Assembly: GCA_003173865.1 (NCBI GenBank)
Contig: PJMF01000010.1
Span: forward strand, 19,088-83,087
Direction: 5' to 3'
Origin: Minisyncoccota bacterium
GTDB lineage: Bacteria > Patescibacteriota > Microgenomatia > UBA1400 > PJMF01
DNA length: 64,000 bases
In this document: one piece after another, positions 27,468-47,037 of the stretch
Layout: each line of letters begins with the position of its first letter
Numbering within the stretch: position 1 is the first letter of the stretch
Notes under the pieces: generated by a model
The model's input: the letters and a program-made list of their open reading frames with translations, nothing else
Databases searched by the model: none
Told to the model about the DNA's origin: nothing
Made by a program: the position numbers and the translations under genes

Positions 27468-27573
27468 CGGAGGAAGCGGGATTCGAACCCGCGAAAAACA
27501 TTCCTGTATACCCTACAAATATGTCTTTTCCAGATTGTCACTCTAGTGCATTCGGCCGCTCTGCCACCCCTCC
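27468..27573 (-). tRNA. Atypical 106-nt tRNA-like gene (Tyr-like type II architecture, anticodon loop GUGACAA)
   Basis: GGAGGGG-UG-GCAGAGCGGCCGAAUGC-A-CUAGA-GUGACAA-UCUGG, then a 37-nt variable hairpin, then GCGGG-UUCGAAU-CCCGC-UUCCUCC-G. Acceptor 5 WC plus 2 G.U pairs. Too long for a standard tRNA. Confidence 0.4.
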
Positions 27574-36030: not shown

Positions 36031-36125
36031 ATATTTTTCCTTTTCTATCGAGCGCCCAAATATTGTACAGTATAATTTCCATATATGGAATGGTTAAATA
36101 TGGCAAGTCCTCAAATAATGAGAGG

Positions 36126-36365
36126 ATGCCGAGTAGATACCAACAAAAGAACGAATACCAGAGAGAACGGGAACAGTTGGGACAAACCATCAAGAGACTT
36201 CGTAATGAACGCAAAATGACCCAAGAGGATCTTGCCGATGAAGCGGACATTAACGTTTCGTATTTGGCCAAAATTGAGAATGGGTACGTGAATACCTCGA
36301 TTCGCTACCTAATTAAGATCTCCCGCGGTCTGAAAGCCAAAGTCCAAGAATTGTTTGAGTTTTAA
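36126..36365 (+). CDS. XRE-family HTH transcriptional regulator
   Basis: QLGQTIKRLRNERKMTQEDLADEADINVSYLAKIENG. Start chosen at M22 of the track ORF (RBS GAGAGG). Confidence 0.6.
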   Translation: MPSRYQQKNEYQREREQLGQTIKRLRNERKMTQEDLADEADINVSYLAKIENGYVNTSIRYLIKISRGLKAKVQELFEF

Positions 36366-36469
36366 GTCTCCTTATTTTGGTGTTGCAAACCCCAACCTTT
36401 CCAGCTTTACAGTTCTGGTTTTTTTCGTATTATGAGGATAAATGAAAATTATCATAAGAATCAATTAAT

Positions 36470-37876
36470 ATGCAAAATTCAACTTTGCAGTCAAATGACG
36501 AAGTTACATTACGTTTAAAAGCCTCCCTAGTTAGAAAAAGTGAAGGTCTGAGTCATCTTAACAATCCAAGAGATTTTTTTAGTGAACTTGCTAATATTTA
36601 TAAATTTATTTCCTCAAGAAACGAGCTGGTGATTATCTTAGAGGAAATGCTCGCGGATTACCAAAAAGAGTTTGTGGAAACGGAGAAGTTAAGACTACAA
36701 GTAGAAAAGGAATTAAATCAATCTTTGGATGAAATTAAAGACATTGCAATCAAAAATAATTTAGTTACTAAGTCCCAGTGGAATGAAGTAAAAGCTTATT
36801 ATGAGAATCACATGGCAAATCCTGTCATACCTGACTTATTGAAAAATCAAGATTCGCCTTCATCGTTAGGAATTACCATTGGTGAATACTATTCCGTGGC
36901 GTATGGATCTACTCAAGCTATGTCTGAAGACGTTACCAGGGAAAGAATGCTACTTGTATATTTAGGTCGTATCGTAGCAACAATTTTTAGCAAAAATCCA
37001 GAATTAGTAAAAAGGTACGTTATCCTTTTCAAGGATGATAAAGGTCAAGAAGTTATTCAGGATTATAAAATTTCGACAACCTATCGGGAATTCGAAAATA
37101 AAAGAGCTCTTGCTACAGTGAAATCGCAAATTTCCCCCTGGTTTGCCTTTTCAAGGCTACAATTAGTACCCCTTTGTATGTATGACTATGTAGAATATAT
37201 GGCTAGATTAAAGGAGCAAAATGACATAGTTAGGTCAATGAATCTCAATTTGCTCGTAGGAGAAATGAGAAATATTTTGGGGAATAAACAGACTTATTCT
37301 AACCAACCTACCATCTTCGTTGTTCAAGATTATAAAAATTATTTCTTAAGGGTTATAGATCACATTTTGGATTACCTAGACTTTACCTCTGAGGAAACTA
37401 AAGAGAAGATAACTCCTTTACAGATTACTCCGAGTCAATCACAAAACATAAAATCCCCTAGCCTTCCTCAATTTCTACCTCAAGACGATCTTGATTCTCT
37501 TTTTTTAGCTAAATTTAGTTTTAATCCAGAGCCCCAAAAAGGCAAATACTTTCTGCGTTACGGTTCTCATATACCAGCAACATTTGATATGAATTCTGAT
37601 TTGGGAAATGTCTGTTATGCGCTTGCCAAAAAAATAGGTGGGTGGGTGCATGCACAGGAAATCGTTTCTCAGGCATGGCCGAAGATAAATTATGAAGCGG
37701 AAACATCGGAGAAGGGCAAAAAGCTTCACAAAAAAGTTCGAGATACAATAAGTGACATACGTATAAAAAAATTAGTACCACATGGGTTGGCTGATGCTAT
37801 TGTTATCCAATCTGGATACGATCTTATCGGTGATAAGGGCAGTAATTGGTTCAGATTTATGCTTATTGCTCCATAG
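36470..37876 (+). CDS. Hypothetical 468-aa element protein
   Basis: ORF only. Confidence 0.35.
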   Translation: MQNSTLQSNDEVTLRLKASLVRKSEGLSHLNNPRDFFSELANIYKFISSRNELVIILEEMLADYQKEFVETEKLRLQVEKELNQSLDEIKDIAIKNNLVTKSQWNEVKAYYENHMANPVIPDLLKNQDSPSSLGITIGEYYSVAYGSTQAMSEDVTRERMLLVYLGRIVATIFSKNPELVKRYVILFKDDKGQEVIQDYKISTTYREFENKRALATVKSQISPWFAFSRLQLVPLCMYDYVEYMARLKEQNDIVRSMNLNLLVGEMRNILGNKQTYSNQPTIFVVQDYKNYFLRVIDHILDYLDFTSEETKEKITPLQITPSQSQNIKSPSLPQFLPQDDLDSLFLAKFSFNPEPQKGKYFLRYGSHIPATFDMNSDLGNVCYALAKKIGGWVHAQEIVSQAWPKINYEAETSEKGKKLHKKVRDTISDIRIKKLVPHGLADAIVIQSGYDLIGDKGSNWFRFMLIAP

Positions 37877-37880
37877 GTTT

Positions 37881-37928
37881 CCGTTACTTCTGTTAGTCTC
37901 CGTTACTTTTTTCCGTCACCTCCGTCAC
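37881..37928 (+). repeat. Iteron-like direct repeats (4 x CCGT[T/C]AC)
   Basis: CCGTTACT at 37881 and 37900; CCGTCAC at 37913 and 37922. Confidence 0.5.
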
Positions 37929-37963
37929 TTTTTCAGAATAAAGAGCCGATCAATACTAGGCTC

Positions 37964-38212
37964 ATGTCAAATTATTCTGTAAATGATTATTTCAACACTT
38001 TCGATTTAGGCCTTAGCGCAGCTTTAGTCTCCCTTGGCTTCCCCATTGATCATCTCGATAAGTCAAATGCTCGTAAAGTCGAGTTTGTATTTCTGCGCGT
38101 CGATGGCTTAGACCAGGCTATCCAATCGTATTGGTCTAATTCTCTTTCTGTCTCTGCCTTGTCGTATTTCAATGCCACAAAAATGATCAAGAACAGGATC
38201 TATAGCGAGTAG
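37964..38212 (+). CDS. Small hypothetical protein
   Basis: ORF only. Confidence 0.3.
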   Translation: MSNYSVNDYFNTFDLGLSAALVSLGFPIDHLDKSNARKVEFVFLRVDGLDQAIQSYWSNSLSVSALSYFNATKMIKNRIYSE

Positions 38213-38231
38213 CAAAAGTTGAAAGTAAAAA

Positions 38232-38423
38232 ATGAAAATTACAAAAGATTACCTTCCAGAAACTCCACCACTAGAACCAATCTCAGGGTCTTTTTATTCT
38301 TTAGCACAACTTCTCTCGATTTGGTGGGATAAACACAATCTTGATGAAAAGTTAGCAACTCACACGATGGATGAAGTTCTTCAAGAAATGATTAGAGAGA
38401 GAAATAAGGAGGAAAAAATGTAA
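38232..38423 (+). CDS. Small hypothetical protein
   Basis: ORF only. Confidence 0.3.
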   Translation: MKITKDYLPETPPLEPISGSFYSLAQLLSIWWDKHNLDEKLATHTMDEVLQEMIRERNKEEKM

Positions 38424-38471
38424 AACAAAATACTCCACCAAAAAAAATACTTAACAATCAAAGGAGCCAAC

Positions 38472-38858
38472 ATGGCAAACAACATAACACTAACAGTCAA
38501 AGAATCGGCAATGCCGGAGCCAATCCCAGTTGGGGTATATCCAGCAAAGCTCACCGATATTGAAAAAGGTGAAGGTGAATTCGGAGTTTACTTAAAATTG
38601 AAATTCACGATCACCGATGGCGAGCATAAGGACACTGAGCGATCGACGATCGCCAAGCTGACCTTAACCAAAGGCAGTAAAAAGAATTCAAAGCTGTACG
38701 ACATTGTTACAGCACTCTCAGGCAAGGCTCCTGAGGCAGAAAAAGAAATCAGCTTCAACAGCCTACTGAACAAAGAATGTCAAATCTTGGTGAAAGACAA
38801 ACCTGGAGACAAAGAAGGCTGGCAAATCATTTCTGAGGTGATGCCAGCCAACAAATAA
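38472..38858 (+). CDS. Hypothetical 128-aa protein
   Basis: ORF with RBS AAGGAG. Confidence 0.35.
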   Translation: MANNITLTVKESAMPEPIPVGVYPAKLTDIEKGEGEFGVYLKLKFTITDGEHKDTERSTIAKLTLTKGSKKNSKLYDIVTALSGKAPEAEKEISFNSLLNKECQILVKDKPGDKEGWQIISEVMPANK

Positions 38859-38861
38859 AAA

Positions 38862-41225
38862 GTGAAAACAACGGAGGGCGGGTATCTGCTCGCCCTCCGC
38901 AGATATATGACTACTGTATCAAACAAAATACCATCAAACAATCTTGAGTGGCAAGAGCTCGGACAAGCCTATCTTGACCTTGGCTGGTCAATTATTCCAG
39001 TCGGCTCTGACAAAAAACCACTGGTAAAGTGGAAAGAATACCAAGATCGTAAACCTACCGTAGATGAACTCAAGGAGTGGTGCGAAAAGAGTAACTTATC
39101 TGGTTTTGCAATCGTGACGGGTAAAATCTCGGGTGTAGTTGTGTTAGACCTTGATCAAGGATCGAAGTTTGACACATCTGTACTCACTCCTACGGTTCAT
39201 TCGCAAACGGGATCAGGTGGTCACCATTATTTTTTCAAGGCTTCTGTTGAAATAGAGCTTGGCAATGCCACTGGCTTCATCGAAAAAACTGATTTTCGTG
39301 GCGAGGGCGGTTATGCAATCTTGCCCCCCTCAAAACATCCCAGTGGCAAGCAGTATTTTTGGCTGGAAAACCCTATCGATACCACATTAGCAGACTTGCC
39401 TGCCTCTCTGATCGAGCAATTGACTAAAGTACCCAAAAAAGAAAGCCTCACCGCACAAGTAAAAGAAGAGATCAACATTTTTGAAGGTGTGGGTGAATCA
39501 AAACGCAATGACTCAGCAGCCAAAGTCGTGGGTTTCTTGATGAAGTATGTGCCTCAAGATCAATGGGAAGCAGTGGTATGGCATTTACTCAAGGGCTGGA
39601 ACCGTTTAAACCAACCACCATTATCTGAAACCGAACTTCGTTCCGTGTATGAATCTATCGCAGAAAGAGCCATTTTTGACAACCAAGGGAGTGAAAAACC
39701 TAATCAGGCGCAAATTATTGTAGGCATGGTGCTCGATTCTCCGATCAAACTTTTTACCAACCAGTTCCATGAAGCCGTTTTGACATTGCCAGATTCATCA
39801 TTTTTAACTTGCAAAATTGATTCTGAAATGACGAGGCATTTACTCTTCAAAATGTTCTGGGATTCGGAGGGCAAGCCTCCCAGTGCTGAGGGAGTCAACA
39901 ATGCAATCAAAACTTTGCAGGGTATTGCCGTTTTTGATCAACCTCAAATTGAGGTATTTAATCGAGTTGGTCGAAAAGGTAACACTGTGTACTACGACAT
40001 TGGCGATGGCACTCATATTGTAAAAATTAGCCCCGATGGCTGGACGCTTGAAGCTGAGTCACCCATTTATTTCCGTCGTTTTTCTCATCAAAAGAAACAA
40101 GTACTGCCACAACGCGGTGGAAACCTTATCGAGCTTTTTAAATTCATCAATGTTCAACAAGACCCCCAAAAGCTACTTGTGCTGACGTTTCTGGTCGTGA
40201 GCTTCATTCCCGACATTCCCAGAGCAATGCTTATTCTTCATGGAGACCAAGGCTCTGCCAAATCGACACTCCTTCGTTTATTACGCGAACTTATTGACCC
40301 AAGTGAGGTGGCTCTCCTTACCCCACCAGATTCCATTCGCGAATTGGTCCAGTTTGCCAGTCATCATTACGCTATTTTTTTGGACAATCTCTCTGAGATC
40401 GCACCCAATTTTTCAGATGCAATGTGTCGCTTAATCACTGGCGATGGATTTACCAAACGACAACTATTTAGTGACGATGAGGACGTTCTATACGCCTATA
40501 AAAGGGTCGTTGGTATTTGTGGTATCAATCAGGTAGCTACCAAACCAGATTTGCTTGACCGAAGCATTATTGTTCCCCTTGAGCGCATTCCTGATGGTAT
40601 GCGCGAAGAAGAAAAACAACTTGAAGCTGAATTCGAACAAATTAAACCATACCTACTGGGCTCTCTATTTGACGCTATCTCTACCACACTTCGCCTTGCC
40701 CCAACTTTGGAGCTAACCTCCAAACCTCGTATGGCTGATTACTTCAAATACGCCACGGCAGCAGCGAAGCATTTCAACTTTACTGAAATTCAACTCGCAG
40801 ACGCATTCAATCAAAATGTGAAGCAACAAAACGAAGAAGCCATCGATTCATCACCCGTCGCCCAAACTCTGATTGAGTTCATGGCAAACCAGTCCACCTG
40901 GCAAGGCAAGAGTTCTGAACTTTACGACAAACTTGAAGACATCGCTGACAAAATTAAAATCAAAAAAGGCTTTCCTAAGGCACCCAGTTGGCTGTGGCGG
41001 AAAATCAAAGACATTCGCCCTAACCTCATGGCTTGTGGTATTTCGATCAACAAAGAAAAGCAGATTGAAGGGACATTCATTGTTATCGAGAAAAATGCTG
41101 CCACTGCTTCCAATGCCACCATAACACCAACGCAGACCGAATCAAGTCATGCAAGCAATGGAAGCACTGCAAGCACAGTTGAGGATTTATCCGAGGATGA
41201 AACGATGAAGTTGCTGGGCGCATGA
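38862..41225 (+). CDS. Bifunctional primase-polymerase (Prim-Pol) fused to a P-loop helicase-like domain
   Basis: N-terminal GWSIIPVGSDKKPLVKWKEY...GFAIVTGKISGVVVLDLD matches the Prim-Pol signature. Walker A HGDQGSAKST; Walker B-like AIFLDNLSE. Confidence 0.7.
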   Translation: MKTTEGGYLLALRRYMTTVSNKIPSNNLEWQELGQAYLDLGWSIIPVGSDKKPLVKWKEYQDRKPTVDELKEWCEKSNLSGFAIVTGKISGVVVLDLDQGSKFDTSVLTPTVHSQTGSGGHHYFFKASVEIELGNATGFIEKTDFRGEGGYAILPPSKHPSGKQYFWLENPIDTTLADLPASLIEQLTKVPKKESLTAQVKEEINIFEGVGESKRNDSAAKVVGFLMKYVPQDQWEAVVWHLLKGWNRLNQPPLSETELRSVYESIAERAIFDNQGSEKPNQAQIIVGMVLDSPIKLFTNQFHEAVLTLPDSSFLTCKIDSEMTRHLLFKMFWDSEGKPPSAEGVNNAIKTLQGIAVFDQPQIEVFNRVGRKGNTVYYDIGDGTHIVKISPDGWTLEAESPIYFRRFSHQKKQVLPQRGGNLIELFKFINVQQDPQKLLVLTFLVVSFIPDIPRAMLILHGDQGSAKSTLLRLLRELIDPSEVALLTPPDSIRELVQFASHHYAIFLDNLSEIAPNFSDAMCRLITGDGFTKRQLFSDDEDVLYAYKRVVGICGINQVATKPDLLDRSIIVPLERIPDGMREEEKQLEAEFEQIKPYLLGSLFDAISTTLRLAPTLELTSKPRMADYFKYATAAAKHFNFTEIQLADAFNQNVKQQNEEAIDSSPVAQTLIEFMANQSTWQGKSSELYDKLEDIADKIKIKKGFPKAPSWLWRKIKDIRPNLMACGISINKEKQIEGTFIVIEKNAATASNATITPTQTESSHASNGSTASTVEDLSEDETMKLLGA

Positions 41226-41268
41226 ATGCCACCCCACAAGCGTTGCTAATGAATCAGGAGAAAAAAAT

Positions 41269-41652
41269 ATGCAGTGTACTTATGTCAAAGCTAATAACGA
41301 ACAATGCCAAGCTAATGCCATGAAGGGCGCGGAATATTGTTTTACACATAACCCGCAAACCAGAGAACAACACGCGGCCGCAGTCCTTGCTGGTGGCAAA
41401 AACTCATCGCGAAAAGATGTGATCGAGCTTGAGCCACTGCAACTTCACAATCCTGATAATGCGATCGATCTCTTGGAGCAAACCATCAATGGAGTCCGAG
41501 ATGGGAGTATCCCACCGAATATCGCAAATACTATTGGTTACTTAGTTGGGCATCTATTAAAAGCAATTGAGGCTGCTGATCTCGATAAACGGCTTGAGTC
41601 CATTGAGCGGGTCATCTTTGAACGAAAAACTGTGGCAAAGAGGTCCAAATGA
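41269..41652 (+). CDS. Zinc-ribbon-containing hypothetical protein
   Basis: CTYVKANNEQCQ...YCFTHN Cys/His cluster. Confidence 0.3.
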   Translation: MQCTYVKANNEQCQANAMKGAEYCFTHNPQTREQHAAAVLAGGKNSSRKDVIELEPLQLHNPDNAIDLLEQTINGVRDGSIPPNIANTIGYLVGHLLKAIEAADLDKRLESIERVIFERKTVAKRSK

Positions 41653-42941
41653 AACAATTTCCAATCAATACCATTAGCCAGGTATTAACGGCAAAAGAGC
41701 GAGCCAAAATGGTCGCCAACCTCTTCATAGAAGAAAGTGAAACGAAAGTTGATCGTAAGGGCGAAGTTGAAACGATCAAAGCTGCTATCCCAGATAGCCA
41801 AGTCAGTGAGTACAACTTTTACATGGATCTTATTTACTCGCTACAAGTCGGCATAGATCTCGATTTACAAACGCTGTACTACCAATTAGCACTCTGCGCT
41901 GCTCAATTGCAAGGTGTCTATCGAATTTTGCACATGGGTATTGTGGCTGACATCTTACTGTTTCAGTTACGTTGGTTTCCTACCATCATGACTGAAAATC
42001 AGTTTCAAAAACTCTATCAAGAACTTCGCCAAGAACAGTTGGCAGCAATATTTAGCATCGATACTTTGGCTGAACACGAAGCATTAACTATTTTCCGAAA
42101 ACAAGAGAAGTACAAAGATTGGGATTCCTATCAAATGGAGTGTGCTACTCAAGAGGAAACGTTTGAGGATAAAGAGCTTTGGTTGACGACACTCCAAAAT
42201 CAAAAAGACAAAATTGAGCATGCAATTGTCGATGGTTCACTTATGGAAGCTATCGTGACTACCGGTGACGGATACTACAGTACCGAAAACGACATCGGAA
42301 AACGCGGCATTACTGCATCAAGTTGGTATCAGTATCAAGGAAAAGAAAACCAAGATTTTAACAGCTACATTGATGAGGCCAGGCATTTGGTTCACTTCCA
42401 TAAGAACGCCGTAGCAATTGACTACTCCCCATTCGTAGATGATGAAGAAGACCATGATCGAAATAAGCAAAGAACTATGGAAATTGTCGAACAGATGGCA
42501 GTCATCAAACGAAAATACACCGATAAGTATGATGCACTTCATTTAACAGTTGATTCCAGTGTAATTGAACAAATTCGAGACATTTCCCAAACAATCAATG
42601 TGATTTACGCGAGAGTTCGTGCCTACATGAATATAACGGTTCAAATTGAAAACACTTATTTTGACGGTCAGGAAGTTGTCTCTCGCAAACTCTGGTCAGG
42701 CACAAAAGCGAAAGACGCGTATGAACAAGTTAAGCTCTCCTATCAAGAAATGATCAAGGAAATTCTTGAGTATTTTGGCAAGATGTTTTCTGAAAAGGTA
42801 AGTTTTGAAAATCCTGAAATTGCCGACATCTTTGAGCATTCAACTGGTGAATACCAAAAAAACTTTGATGAAACTTTAGATAGCTTGATGGAAAGCGCCA
42901 AGAAAAGGAGTGGTTTCCGTCCAAGATATTTACCAAGTTGA
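41649..42941 (+). CDS. Hypothetical 430-aa element protein
   Basis: ORF; 4-nt overlap with the upstream gene. Confidence 0.35.
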   Translation: MKQFPINTISQVLTAKERAKMVANLFIEESETKVDRKGEVETIKAAIPDSQVSEYNFYMDLIYSLQVGIDLDLQTLYYQLALCAAQLQGVYRILHMGIVADILLFQLRWFPTIMTENQFQKLYQELRQEQLAAIFSIDTLAEHEALTIFRKQEKYKDWDSYQMECATQEETFEDKELWLTTLQNQKDKIEHAIVDGSLMEAIVTTGDGYYSTENDIGKRGITASSWYQYQGKENQDFNSYIDEARHLVHFHKNAVAIDYSPFVDDEEDHDRNKQRTMEIVEQMAVIKRKYTDKYDALHLTVDSSVIEQIRDISQTINVIYARVRAYMNITVQIENTYFDGQEVVSRKLWSGTKAKDAYEQVKLSYQEMIKEILEYFGKMFSEKVSFENPEIADIFEHSTGEYQKNFDETLDSLMESAKKRSGFRPRYLPS

Positions 42942-42976
42942 CATATATGGCAATTGATCGAAAATAATAGGAGAAG

Positions 42977-44527
42977 GTGGCAAAGATGTATCAGCAACTG
43001 AATGGCTCTGACGACTACGCTAGTGTCAAAAACTGCCTACTCTATGCCCGTGTGAGCACGGATCGCCAAGTACGTGAGGGTCATTCTTTTGAAGACCAAA
43101 TCGAGCGATTAAGTAAGTTCGCCCGAGATCGAAACTGGCATATTATCGATGTGTATAAAGATGGGGGTAAAAGTGGTGGCTCAACTACTGGCAGACCAGA
43201 GTTTAACCGCATGCTTGAACGATGTGCCAGTGATCCAGAAGTTCATGCCGTTTTGCTCGAAGAAACTGACCGCTTCGCCCGCAATGCTCAGGATCATTTA
43301 GCCGTCAAATCATTTCTCAAAAAACATAACGTACTCTTGATAGCAACCGAGCAACCCAACTTCGGTGATGACCCAGTCGGAAAGTTTGTCGACTTAATCA
43401 TGGCTGGAGCCAACCAACTACAACGCGAAATAACTGGTCAAAAAACCAAACGCACAATGGTCTCACTTGCTGAGAAAGGTATCCAACCTGGCCCTGCCAT
43501 TATTGGGTATCGTAACTCTTATAAAAAGGGTGAGCCTTGGTCGATTGATCAAGAACGTGAGTACTTTGTCAAAGAAGTTTTTCGCCGTTACCACACTGCG
43601 ATGTACTCCATTTATCGATTAGAAGATGAATTGTTCAATGAAGGGTTTCGCACTCCAAAAAGCTGCCGTGTTCGAGCTAACGCCATTGCGCGAATGTTGG
43701 TCGATGTCCGTTATGCTGGGAAAGTGCTGTACGACGGAAAGACCTATGATGGTCTTCACCCTTGCATCGTCACCATGGAAGATATACAAAAATCAAAGGA
43801 CATTATGCAAAAACACAATAAAGGTGCAGACCGCACTCGCAAACACAACTGGTTTTTGGCTGGCCTGGCATATTGCAAAACATGCGGCACATTGATGTCT
43901 GGCGAGCAACATATCAAAGAGACTGGTCAAATCAATTTGTATTACCGGTGTCTTGGTCAAAAGAGCTATGGCAAAAGCTGCACAGAACCATATGCCATCA
44001 TGGATGACATTCACGATCAACTGGAAACGTGGATTAAAGGTTTGAAATTTGAAGAAGGTTTCTACGATGGACTGCGCCAAGAGCTATATGGCTTAATGCA
44101 AAGCCAAGGCTCAGATGTCCCGAGCCAAATACGTACACTCAAAAAACGGAAAATGGTAATTGAGAAAAAGATGGATGCGCTCGAAGATCAATTATTTGGC
44201 GAGATTGTTTCTAAAGAGCGCATTGAAAAGAAATATGCGCCACTTCGTAAAGAGTTAGAAAAGGTCGAGTCACAGATTGCAGCACTGAGTAAACCATCAG
44301 CGAACTTAGATGAAAAGAAAATTGAAAAGATCATCGACTTTTTGAAACGTTTACCCGAGCTCTATAAAGCTTTCACCAAACCAGAACGAAAACTGTTCTT
44401 ACACTGGCTCGTCAAAAATATCTGGATACAAGGCAAAAAAATCGTCGATGTGAGTTACACCGAAGGCTTCCAAGCCTTAATCGACCGTGATTTGGTTCGG
44501 ATAAGCAACACGTGGCTCCTCGGCTAG
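42977..44527 (+). CDS. Large serine recombinase/integrase
   Basis: Resolvase N-terminus LLYARVSTDRQ with catalytic Ser. Recombinase domain and Cys cluster CKTCG...C. The stop lies within the tRNA-Asn 3' end. Confidence 0.8.
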   Translation: MAKMYQQLNGSDDYASVKNCLLYARVSTDRQVREGHSFEDQIERLSKFARDRNWHIIDVYKDGGKSGGSTTGRPEFNRMLERCASDPEVHAVLLEETDRFARNAQDHLAVKSFLKKHNVLLIATEQPNFGDDPVGKFVDLIMAGANQLQREITGQKTKRTMVSLAEKGIQPGPAIIGYRNSYKKGEPWSIDQEREYFVKEVFRRYHTAMYSIYRLEDELFNEGFRTPKSCRVRANAIARMLVDVRYAGKVLYDGKTYDGLHPCIVTMEDIQKSKDIMQKHNKGADRTRKHNWFLAGLAYCKTCGTLMSGEQHIKETGQINLYYRCLGQKSYGKSCTEPYAIMDDIHDQLETWIKGLKFEEGFYDGLRQELYGLMQSQGSDVPSQIRTLKKRKMVIEKKMDALEDQLFGEIVSKERIEKKYAPLRKELEKVESQIAALSKPSANLDEKKIEKIIDFLKRLPELYKAFTKPERKLFLHWLVKNIWIQGKKIVDVSYTEGFQALIDRDLVRISNTWLLG

Positions 44528-44776
44528 GATTCGAACCTAGAACCATCTCCTTACAAAGGTCCCTTAGTTACCTAAAGGTTTGGACTATCTTATCCGCCAA
44601 ACTGTGTTTGGTGGCTGGGTATATAGTCTCTACACATTTACCCCGCCGCGGCGGGGATTTAGCTCGGGATTTTCCTCTGAAGAGGAGTTCCCCGAATTAG
44701 CCCAGTTTTCCACTATCTATTACTAGACAGCGCTGCCATGTAACAGGGAGCCGCGCTACCATTGCGCCACCGAGGA
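44513..44776 (-). tRNA. tRNA-Asn (GUU) interrupted in the anticodon loop by a group I intron
   Basis: 5' exon UCCUCGG-UG-GCGC-AAUGGUA-GCGC-G-GCUCC-CUGU. 3' exon UAAGGAGA-UGGUU-CUAGG-UUCGAAU-CCUAG-CCGAGGA-G-CCA. Spliced anticodon loop is CUGUUAA. Confidence 0.7.
44554..44742 (-). ncRNA. Group I intron (about 189 nt, no ORF)
   Basis: P-like AAUUCGGGGAA, Q-like AAUCCCCGCC, R-like GUAGAGACUAUA, S-like AAGAUAGUCC. 5' exon ends in U. omega-G precedes the 3' exon. IGS GCAG pairs with exon CUGU. Confidence 0.65.
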
Positions 44777-44839
44777 ATGTTAAGCTACGTCCGCTATTTT
44801 ATCAGCAAAAATCAGAGAAATCTATGCTATTCTGGAAGC

Positions 44840-45948: not shown

Positions 45949-47037
45949 TCATTCCAAGAAATCCTGCAACCTCTTTCGCTTACTCGGATGGCGCAACTTG
46001 CGCAAAGCTTTGGCTTCGATTTGGCGGATACGTTCACGAGTGACACCAAACTTTTGACCAACTTCTTCGAGTGTCATTGGGCGAGAACCATTTAAGCCAA
46101 AACGCATCTTCAGCACACGCGCTTCGCGGTCGCTCAGCGCGTTCAACACCTCATCCACATTCTCCTTGAGCATGCGCTGACTCGTCGCGTCATACGGCGA
46201 AATCTGTGTGTCATCAGCGATAAAGTCACCCAAGTAACTGTCGTCTTCGTCACCAATTGGCGTTTCGAGCGAAGTTGTCTTCTGGGAAATCTTCAAAATC
46301 TCGCGAACCCGATCGGGCTCCATATCCATGACCTTGCCGATTTCCTCGGGGGTCGGCTCGCGGCCAAGATCTTGCATCAACTTGCGCGACGTGCGCATCA
46401 ACTTGTTGATCGTCTCGACCATGTGGACCGGAATACGAATCGTCCGAGCTTGGTCCGCAATCGCGCGTGTAATCGCTTGGCGAATCCACCACGTTGCATA
46501 CGTGGAAAACTTAAAGCCTTTGGTCCAGTCATACTTCTCGACCGCGCGAATGAGACCTTTGTTTCCTTCTTGAATGAGATCCAAGAACGTCATTCCGCGA
46601 CCAATATATTTCTTGGCAATCGAGACAACTAAACGGAGATTAGAGGCGGTCAACTTCTCTTTTGCTTTGGGATCACCAGCCTCAGTACGCTGCGCCAGAT
46701 CGATTTCCTGCTCACGATTGAGCAATGGAATGCGCCCAATTTCCTTGAGGTACATGCGCACCGGATCAGTACCAGCTTTAGAATCTAAAGTGGTCAACAT
46801 TTCCAGTTCGCGCTGAATCTCATTGGGACCTTCCGGTTCTTCTTCCGAAACGGATTCAAAAATATCGATGTTGTTCTTGAGAATGTTATCGTAAAACTCA
46901 TCCAAAATATCGATGTACAGCTCTGGCTCGATAATCGCTTCGAGTACTTCTTCTTGCGTGACAAAACCACGACTTATCGCCTTTTTTAGCAATGTATCGA
47001 TATCACTCTGGATGGCTTGGGTTACTTTGGCGGTCAT
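45949..47037 (-). CDS. rpoD: RNA polymerase primary sigma factor (SigA-size)
   Basis: Region 2.4 [11 protein letters not shown]; region 4 [31 protein letters not shown]. Confidence 0.9.

Follow-up and report, generated by a model that had tools for sequence, protein, structure and literature searches.

The window analysed here (the whole 64,000-nt stretch of contig PJMF01000010.1) contains on its minus strand the two halves of a tRNA-Asn(GUU) gene, which begins at position 44776, ends with its CCA at 44513 and is interrupted inside the anticodon by 189 nt. The locus raises the question of what this interruption is, how an intact tRNA could be made from it and how it came to lie there. An earlier note on the same DNA had proposed a compact group I intron. 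The profile searches, the tRNA searches and the pairing analysis described below agree with that proposal: the rpoD-linked tRNA-Asn(GUU) locus of this bacterium, a member of the Patescibacteria (Candidate Phyla Radiation, CPR), very probably carries a 189-nt self-splicing group I ribozyme between U35 and U36.

The split gene (44513..44776, minus strand, encoded CCA included) was missed by ARAGORN in its default run, which allows no introns. When introns were allowed (option -i), it was called as tRNA-Asn(gtt) with i(35,189), that is, a 189-nt intron at position 35. The layout on the minus strand is TCCTCGGTGGCGCAATGGTAGCGCGGCTCCCTGT / 189 nt / TAAGGAGATGGTTCTAGGTTCGAATCCTAGCCGAGGAGCCA. The 5' exon (34 nt, 44743..44776) comprises the acceptor strand UCCUCGG, the D arm GCGC/GCGC, the 5' strand of the anticodon stem GCUCC and C32-U33-G34-U35, its 3' end reading ...GCUCC-CUGU. 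The 3' exon (41 nt, 44513..44553; UAAGGAGA...CCGAGGA-G-CCA) comprises U36-A37-A38, the 3' strand of the anticodon stem GGAGA, the variable loop UGGUU, the T arm, CCGAGGA, G73 and CCA. The intron between them (44554..44742, UACAUGG...CCUUUG) has no open reading frame (ORF) of note: the longest on the sense strand is 27 amino acids, and no homing endonuclease gene was found in it.

Joining the exons as CUGU|UAA gives a canonical cloverleaf of 75 nt with the anticodon loop CUGUUAA, G73 and the encoded CCA, which ARAGORN, run on the spliced sequence, recognised as tRNA-Asn(gtt). The discriminator G73 is an identity element of E. coli tRNA-Asn; it is present in all of the at least 70 related tRNA-Asn genes described below. 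Only one excision, 44742..44554, has a U before it and a G at its end, and the intron was therefore placed between tRNA positions 35 and 36. The alternative boundary, a tRNA-Thr(UGU) split at 33/34, was ruled out: the intron would then end on a U. Such a tRNA-Thr(UGU) 33/34 assignment is a frequent mis-call for 35/36 introns (Nakagawa et al. 2026, PMC13011429). No other tRNA-Asn gene was found within the 64-kb window by the default tRNA search or by Rfam.

The intron was matched by the Rfam group I model RF00028 (Intron_gpI) at 44754..44561 on the minus strand with 56.5 bits (E=1.2e-11), over model positions 1-253 of 253; the gathering score of this model is 50 bits. A nhmmer profile built from the introns of 71 relatives, with the window's own copy left out, gave a single match in the 64 kb, at 44739..44554 on the minus strand (E=1.7e-42, 140 bits), which ended on the terminal G. 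The minimum free energy of the intron was lower than that of shuffled sequences (z = -4.74), and thermodynamic folding by itself yielded P1, P2, P4, P5, P6, P8 and P9. The features by which a group I intron is recognised are present: the RF00028 score, a P1 with a U.G wobble, a core P3-P8 with the P3/P7 pseudoknot and a terminal G.

Most of what the earlier note had read from the letters was borne out by these analyses: the limits 44513-44776 are exactly those of the split gene, the intron is about 189 nt long and lies between 35 and 36, it has no ORF, and a G at 44554, where the profile ends, precedes the 3' exon. The Rfam search and the tRNA search on the spliced exons, which it had put forward as checks, gave the positive results reported above. 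Its reading of a guide GCAG pairing with the exon CUGU, with the 5' splice site after a U, and of a P7 formed by R-like and S-like elements also held when homologues were compared.

For this comparison, one genome per species was scanned with the exact 20-mer ATGTGTAGAGACTATATACC (AUGUGUAGAGACUAUAUACC; J6/7-P7-J7/3), which returned at least 119 loci; these were parsed as CTGT | ... G | N36 with intact tRNA arms. At least 70 tRNA-Asn(GUU) and at least 13 tRNA-Asp(GUC) genes carry the 20-mer core, all of them split at 35/36. Intron lengths range from 174 to 288 nt, with a median of 194.5 for tRNA-Asn among the matches listed. Guide GCAG, P7 and the junction sequences are identical across these genes, and the peripheral hairpins P2, P5, P6, P8 and P9 vary freely.

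The window's precursor was aligned with 71 homologues. Across the 72 sequences, standard pairs fill 93.4% of cells, and sliding the 3' partners by 1-3 columns lowers this to 36-47%; both bases vary in 57 of the 83 pairs, and none of 500 shuffles reached the observed values. Because one of the aligned sequences served to derive the structure, and because the set is made up of relatives, the absolute figures flatter it; the contrast with the slid controls is nevertheless large. The acceptor, D, anticodon and T stems of the tRNA covary as well. J3/4, J6/7 and J8/7 are invariant, along with CUGU/GCAG, the U.G pair and P7; the window's copy carries all of these and has the family residue in every invariant column.

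The individual helices are given below on the minus strand, with precursor numbering in which position 1 is window position 44776. P1 (CUGUU/GGCAG with the loop ACAU; 44733..44746, precursor 31-35/40-44), taken from the 72-sequence alignment, joins exon nucleotides C32-U35 and the first intron nucleotide to the internal guide G-GCAG, and its wobble U35.G41 marks the 5' splice site. None of the 72 sequences deviates in the exon CUGU, the guide GCAG or the wobble; covariation is seen in the adjoining pair, which intron nucleotide +1 forms with the base preceding GCAG (CG 48, GC 8, AU 7, UG 7). P2 is a hairpin of 9 bp with a GUAA tetraloop (44711..44732, precursor 45-53/58-66), identified by pairing and covariation: in eight of its nine pairs both bases vary within the family, and G..AA is conserved in the loop. 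The 5' strand of P3, CUGGG (44701..44705, precursor 72-76), pairs with CCCAG (44615..44619, precursor 158-162) and forms the P3/P7 pseudoknot; three of these five pairs covary and 99.4% of the cells are paired.

P4 (UCGGGG/UCCCGA, precursor 82-87/108-113) encloses P5 (UCCUC/GAGGA with the loop UUCA, precursor 91-95/100-104), the two together occupying 44664..44695 according to the Rfam alignment and covariation. P4 is paired in 98.8% of cells and four pairs of P5 covary. On this point the earlier note was wrong: it had paired AAUUCGGGGAA with AAUCCCCGCC as P and Q, and P4 is UCGGGG/UCCCGA by the Rfam alignment and covariation. CCCCGCC was rejected as a partner of UCGGGG, this stretch being the 5' arm of the self-contained P6 hairpin. 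P6 (44634..44663, precursor 114-115/142-143 and 121-126/131-136) consists of the closing pairs G.U and C-G, an internal loop UAAAU/UAAAU and the hairpin CCCCGC/GCGGGG, in which six of six pairs covary. Little or no variation is seen in the strands of the internal loop, CUAAAU and UAAAUG. This loop resembles a tetraloop-receptor motif and might dock with the conserved GNRA loop of L2 or L9.

The 5' strand of P7, G-(A bulge)-GACUA (44624..44630, precursor 147 and 149-153, with A148 bulged), pairs with UAGUCC (44582..44587, precursor 190-195), which follows the J8/7 sequence AUAAGA and was placed by Rfam and by pairing. P7 (GAGACUA/UAGUCC), which presumably contains the guanosine-binding G-C pair, is invariant in 72 of 72 sequences. 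P8 is a hairpin of 9 bp with the loop ACA and one A.C mismatch (44594..44614, precursor 163-171/175-183); all nine pairs covary in the family. P9.0 (AA/UU, 2 bp, precursor 196-197/221-222) encloses P9 (7 bp with a GUAA tetraloop, precursor 199-205/210-216), both within 44555..44581; the second P9.0 pair covaries (AU 31, GC 22, CG 12), as do six pairs of P9. The last intron base is the terminal guanosine, omega G (44554, precursor 223), which is invariant in the alignment, a terminal G having been a selection criterion for the aligned set. A hairpin between P7 and P3' is absent in the window's copy. All helices of this copy pair, save the one position in P8 and G27.A43, which is typical of the family.

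From the established group I pathway and experiments on homologues, the following course can be proposed. The precursor would be transcribed as a single RNA, and the intron would fold into P1-P9.0, with the guide GCAG holding C32-U35 in P1 and the U35.G wobble marking the 5' splice site. P7 would bind a free guanosine nucleotide, which would attack after U35. The terminal G, placed by the 2-bp P9.0, would then take over the guanosine site, and the 3'-OH of U35 would attack after it, ligating the exons into the 75-nt tRNA with the loop CUGUUAA, which would undergo ordinary end processing. Until it is spliced, the tRNA-Asn could not decode, its anticodon being divided and base-paired in P1.

The closest experimental parallel is the tRNA-Asp 35/36 intron of CP011214.1 (GCA_001029755.1, whose coordinates match a locus of our scan), to which the window's intron is 63-67% identical. 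This tRNA-Asp intron self-splices precisely in vitro, and changing its terminal G to C blocks the second step, the intermediate accumulating (Nakagawa et al. 2026, PMC13011429). The homology makes a strong case that the window's intron would splice likewise.

Several points weigh against a working ribozyme at this locus. The support for P7 lies in conservation only, as its pairs never vary, and P8 of the window's copy has the A.C mismatch. No convincing P10, in which the 3' exon would pair with the P1 loop, could be found, and it is presumably the anticodon stem that aligns the exons. The activity of this copy is predicted from a homologue at the degree of identity given above, and the 64 kb of genome in view leaves room for an intron-less tRNA-Asn elsewhere. 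A consensus scan found no full two-hexamer promoter for the tRNA gene. A possible extended -10 element, TGATAAAAT, can be read 19 nt upstream of the tRNA (44796..44804, minus strand), and a similar stretch, TAAAATAGC..AACAT, lies upstream of tRNA-Asn in two relatives (L120 and L121). About 50 nt past the tRNA 3' end there is a terminator-like hairpin with a T run (44445..44463, minus strand), a consensus match of which one was found against 0.7 expected.

The earlier note had considered an intron at this site of tRNA-Asn unusual, which is out of date. Group I introns have been mapped in about 80,000 genomes, raising the number of intron-interrupted tRNA classes from 4 to 21 (Williams 2020, bioRxiv 10.1101/2020.01.27.920355); the class 'Asn.4Ug' of that survey is cited for the 35/36 site by Nakagawa et al. 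(PMC13011429). Among 95 complete Patescibacteria genomes, 15 tRNA-Asn and 3 tRNA-Asp introns were described at 35/36 (Nakagawa et al., mSystems 2026, PMC13011429), and our scan adds the at least 70 tRNA-Asn loci. The same authors reported that annotation tools often miss or mislabel these introns and validated splicing experimentally. Introns of this kind at this position have thus been on record since 2020, their splicing in vitro was demonstrated in 2025-26, and the window's copy is a further example. It belongs with the Patescibacterial tRNA-Asn/Asp 35/36 class by its insertion site in a GUN anticodon, its Patescibacteria host and its homology to described members.

With the tRNA-Asn introns of Nakagawa et al. 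the window's intron shares the host phylum, the tRNA, the CUGU|N36 site, the rule of U-1 and a terminal G, and the lack of an endonuclease gene. The core elements GGCUAAUUCGGGGAA, AAUCCCGAGCUAAAU, GUAAAUGUGUAGAGACUAUAUACC and GAUAAGAUAGUCC are common to it and to two Microgenomatia tRNA-Asp introns in the available part of their Table S3, one of which is the self-splicing intron of GCA_001029755.1. In contrast, this core is absent from the tRNA-Asn introns given there with full sequence (10 of 15), most of which are 205-312 nt long and contain an additional hairpin between P7 and P3'; four further entries in the same available part carry HNH endonuclease genes. The compact 189-nt type occurs there only in tRNA-Asp, and the window's copy is not among the sequences of that study. 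Its intron is at most about 77% identical to any sequence retrieved, the best value among the at least 119 scanned loci being about 75%.

The classical bacterial tRNA introns, those of tRNA-Leu(UAA) at 34/35, tRNA-fMet at 33/34 and tRNA-Arg at 36/37, differ from the window's intron in tRNA, site and guide. The Azoarcus tRNA-Ile intron is of the IC3 type. The architecture of the window's intron is similar to that of the classical IC3 classes, and its insertion site (35/36) and host tRNA (tRNA-Asn) are not theirs. The Leu and fMet rows in the available part of Nakagawa Table S5 (PMC13011429) are labelled subgroup IC3, and the Patescibacterial tRNA introns were placed in subgroup IA, not IC (Nakagawa et al. 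2026, PMC13011429). The window's copy has no P7-P3' hairpin, in which it departs from the IA1-labelled tRNA-Asn rows of that part of the table, and its core resembles the IC3-labelled rows. The 20-nt core was also found in tRNA-Leu(UAA) introns at 34/35 in seven loci (L007, L019, L023, L027, L031, L046 and L066) from metagenome-assembled genomes (MAGs) titled Paludibacteraceae, Bacteroidales, Clostridiales, Eubacteriales or Enterocola and is thus not confined to the 35/36 class.

The question of how the intron came to this locus was approached through the host and its relatives. RpoD, encoded upstream of the tRNA gene (45949-47037, minus strand), has homologues of 76-82% identity titled 'Patescibacteria group bacterium' and 'Candidatus Pacebacteria', and others of up to 91%; NCBI places Pacebacteria in the phylum Minisyncoccota (CPR). 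Judged from these homologues, the host is a Patescibacterium. In more than 20 scanned loci of Microgenomates type, including Ames-, Gottesman- and Levybacteria, rpoD and the intron-bearing tRNA-Asn gene are no more than a few kb apart. About 30 other loci, together with L001, L004, L024 and L093, come from MAGs titled 'uncultured Gammaproteobacteria' or 'uncultured Pseudomonadales bacterium'; their tRNA-Asn exons are identical to those of Gottesmanbacteria, their RpoD is 62-66% identical to the window's, and L093 (OZ246397.1) is a 615-kb chromosome. These MAGs appear to be mislabelled and to be Patescibacteria instead.

The tRNA-Asn gene downstream of rpoD was then compared in the six closest relative loci with DNA (L120-L125). 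Five of them have an intron-less syntenic tRNA-Asn (L120, GCA_040384245.1; L121, GCA_964574595.1; L122; L123; L124), with RpoD 88-90% identical to that of the window. The sixth, L125, bears the intron; its RpoD is 90% and its tRNA gene 77% identical to the window's. This presence and absence in syntenic loci implies that the intron was gained or precisely lost within the clade.

A tentative explanation, possible but unproven, is that the window's intron-bearing allele was acquired horizontally and did not descend from the ancestor of the clade. It could have arrived by homing or reverse splicing with co-conversion of the exons, or by replacement of the resident gene, possibly aided by the serine-recombinase element that abuts the tRNA 3' end. 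Besides the lack of the intron in five of the six syntenic relatives, the exons are in favour of such an origin: those of L125 differ from those of the intron-less L122 at 2 of 72 positions, two compensating positions of the T stem, whereas the window's exons differ from L120-L125 at 10-14 of 72 and agree at 64 of 72 with alleles from distant Patescibacteria that carry the intron. However, 72 nt of exon hold little signal, the sequence upstream of the tRNA is similar to that in L120 and L121, and repeated precise loss fits the pattern of presence and absence equally well. In addition, the intron lacks a homing endonuclease gene, the nearest intron found is 70-77% identical, leaving no trace of a recent donor, and in a neighbour-joining tree, which has no support values, the window's intron forms a long isolated branch whose position was not usefully resolved. 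A wider proposal, which we regard as unlikely, is that this compact intron without endonuclease is still mobile and enters C32-U33-G34-U35 of GUN tRNAs (Asn, Asp, Tyr) by reverse splicing or recombination, being gained and lost among close relatives.

Less probable again is a regulatory role, in which the intron would be more than a tolerated selfish element and would make the maturation of tRNA-Asn depend on the supply of guanosine nucleotides or on folding conditions, in a genome with few protein regulators. This was put forward as a perspective by Nakagawa et al. (PMC13011429), and it would suit both the sequestration of the anticodon in P1 until splicing and the wide retention of the intron family in reduced genomes; there is, however, no direct evidence for it, and the close relatives without the intron argue against an indispensable role. 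That the intron is a decayed, non-splicing relic in a tRNA pseudogene, with a functional tRNA-Asn elsewhere, is very improbable: although five close relatives prove that intron-less syntenic alleles exist in the clade, P8 contains a mismatch and 64 kb of the genome is in view, this copy keeps the family residue in all invariant columns, its core helices all pair, the mismatched P8 position is unpaired in 13 of the 72 sequences too, its exons join into a perfect cloverleaf complete with G73 and CCA, and the window holds no other tRNA-Asn.

The element next to the intron's host gene is a block of plus-strand genes of about 8.5 kb (36050-44527) in mostly minus-strand surroundings, which looks like an integrative element. 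It encodes an ORF with an XRE-type helix-turn-helix, read from the sequence (~36100-36366), a Prim-Pol/PriCT protein (38862-41225), a large serine recombinase of 516 amino acids (42977-44527), a protein of 468 amino acids and two others of no assigned function. With its final 15 nt, the recombinase gene runs antisense into the 3' acceptor end of the tRNA-Asn gene. No duplicated tRNA 3' end, as an att mark of the adjacent element, was found within the window. On the contig of a close relative, AhpC is followed, after a gap of 84 nt, by a Resolvase gene. Serine-recombinase elements appear to have integrated repeatedly at the 3' end of tRNA-Asn (loci L028:1525-2991, L022:2864-4348, L011:3762-5225, L014:3708-5192, L053:4418-5914 and L116:5306-6763).

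A second, separate tRNA-like gene of 106 nt lies at 27468-27573 on the minus strand; it scored 45 bits with the Rfam tRNA model and was missed by ARAGORN. Its body is like that of a tRNA-Ser, with a GGAGGGG acceptor strand, a D stem of 3 bp and G73. The anticodon loop, GUGACAA, is aberrant and has the nominal anticodon GAC (Val); the variable arm is AU-rich and 36 nt long, the acceptor stem contains two G.U pairs and CCA is not encoded. Among 120 metagenomic tRNAs that share its first 18 nt, 111 are Ser(UGA/CGA) and 8 are Tyr, and none of the 120 sequences is longer than 97 nt, 16 nt of 3' flank included. The gene could be a pseudogene, or else a tRNA of Ser type that bears a Val anticodon.

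As default tRNA finders miss the split gene, the genome of this bacterium would seem to be without tRNA-Asn and would be scored as less complete, a point that has already been published. Splice site and mechanism are established for homologues, and the window's copy adds no new principle. Small additions of the analysis are that the compact type, seen only in tRNA-Asp in the available part of the 2026 table, is common in tRNA-Asn across species-representative genomes, and that a narrow clade with the syntenic tRNA-Asn gene in forms with and without the intron provides a natural pair of alleles for the study of intron gain and precise loss.

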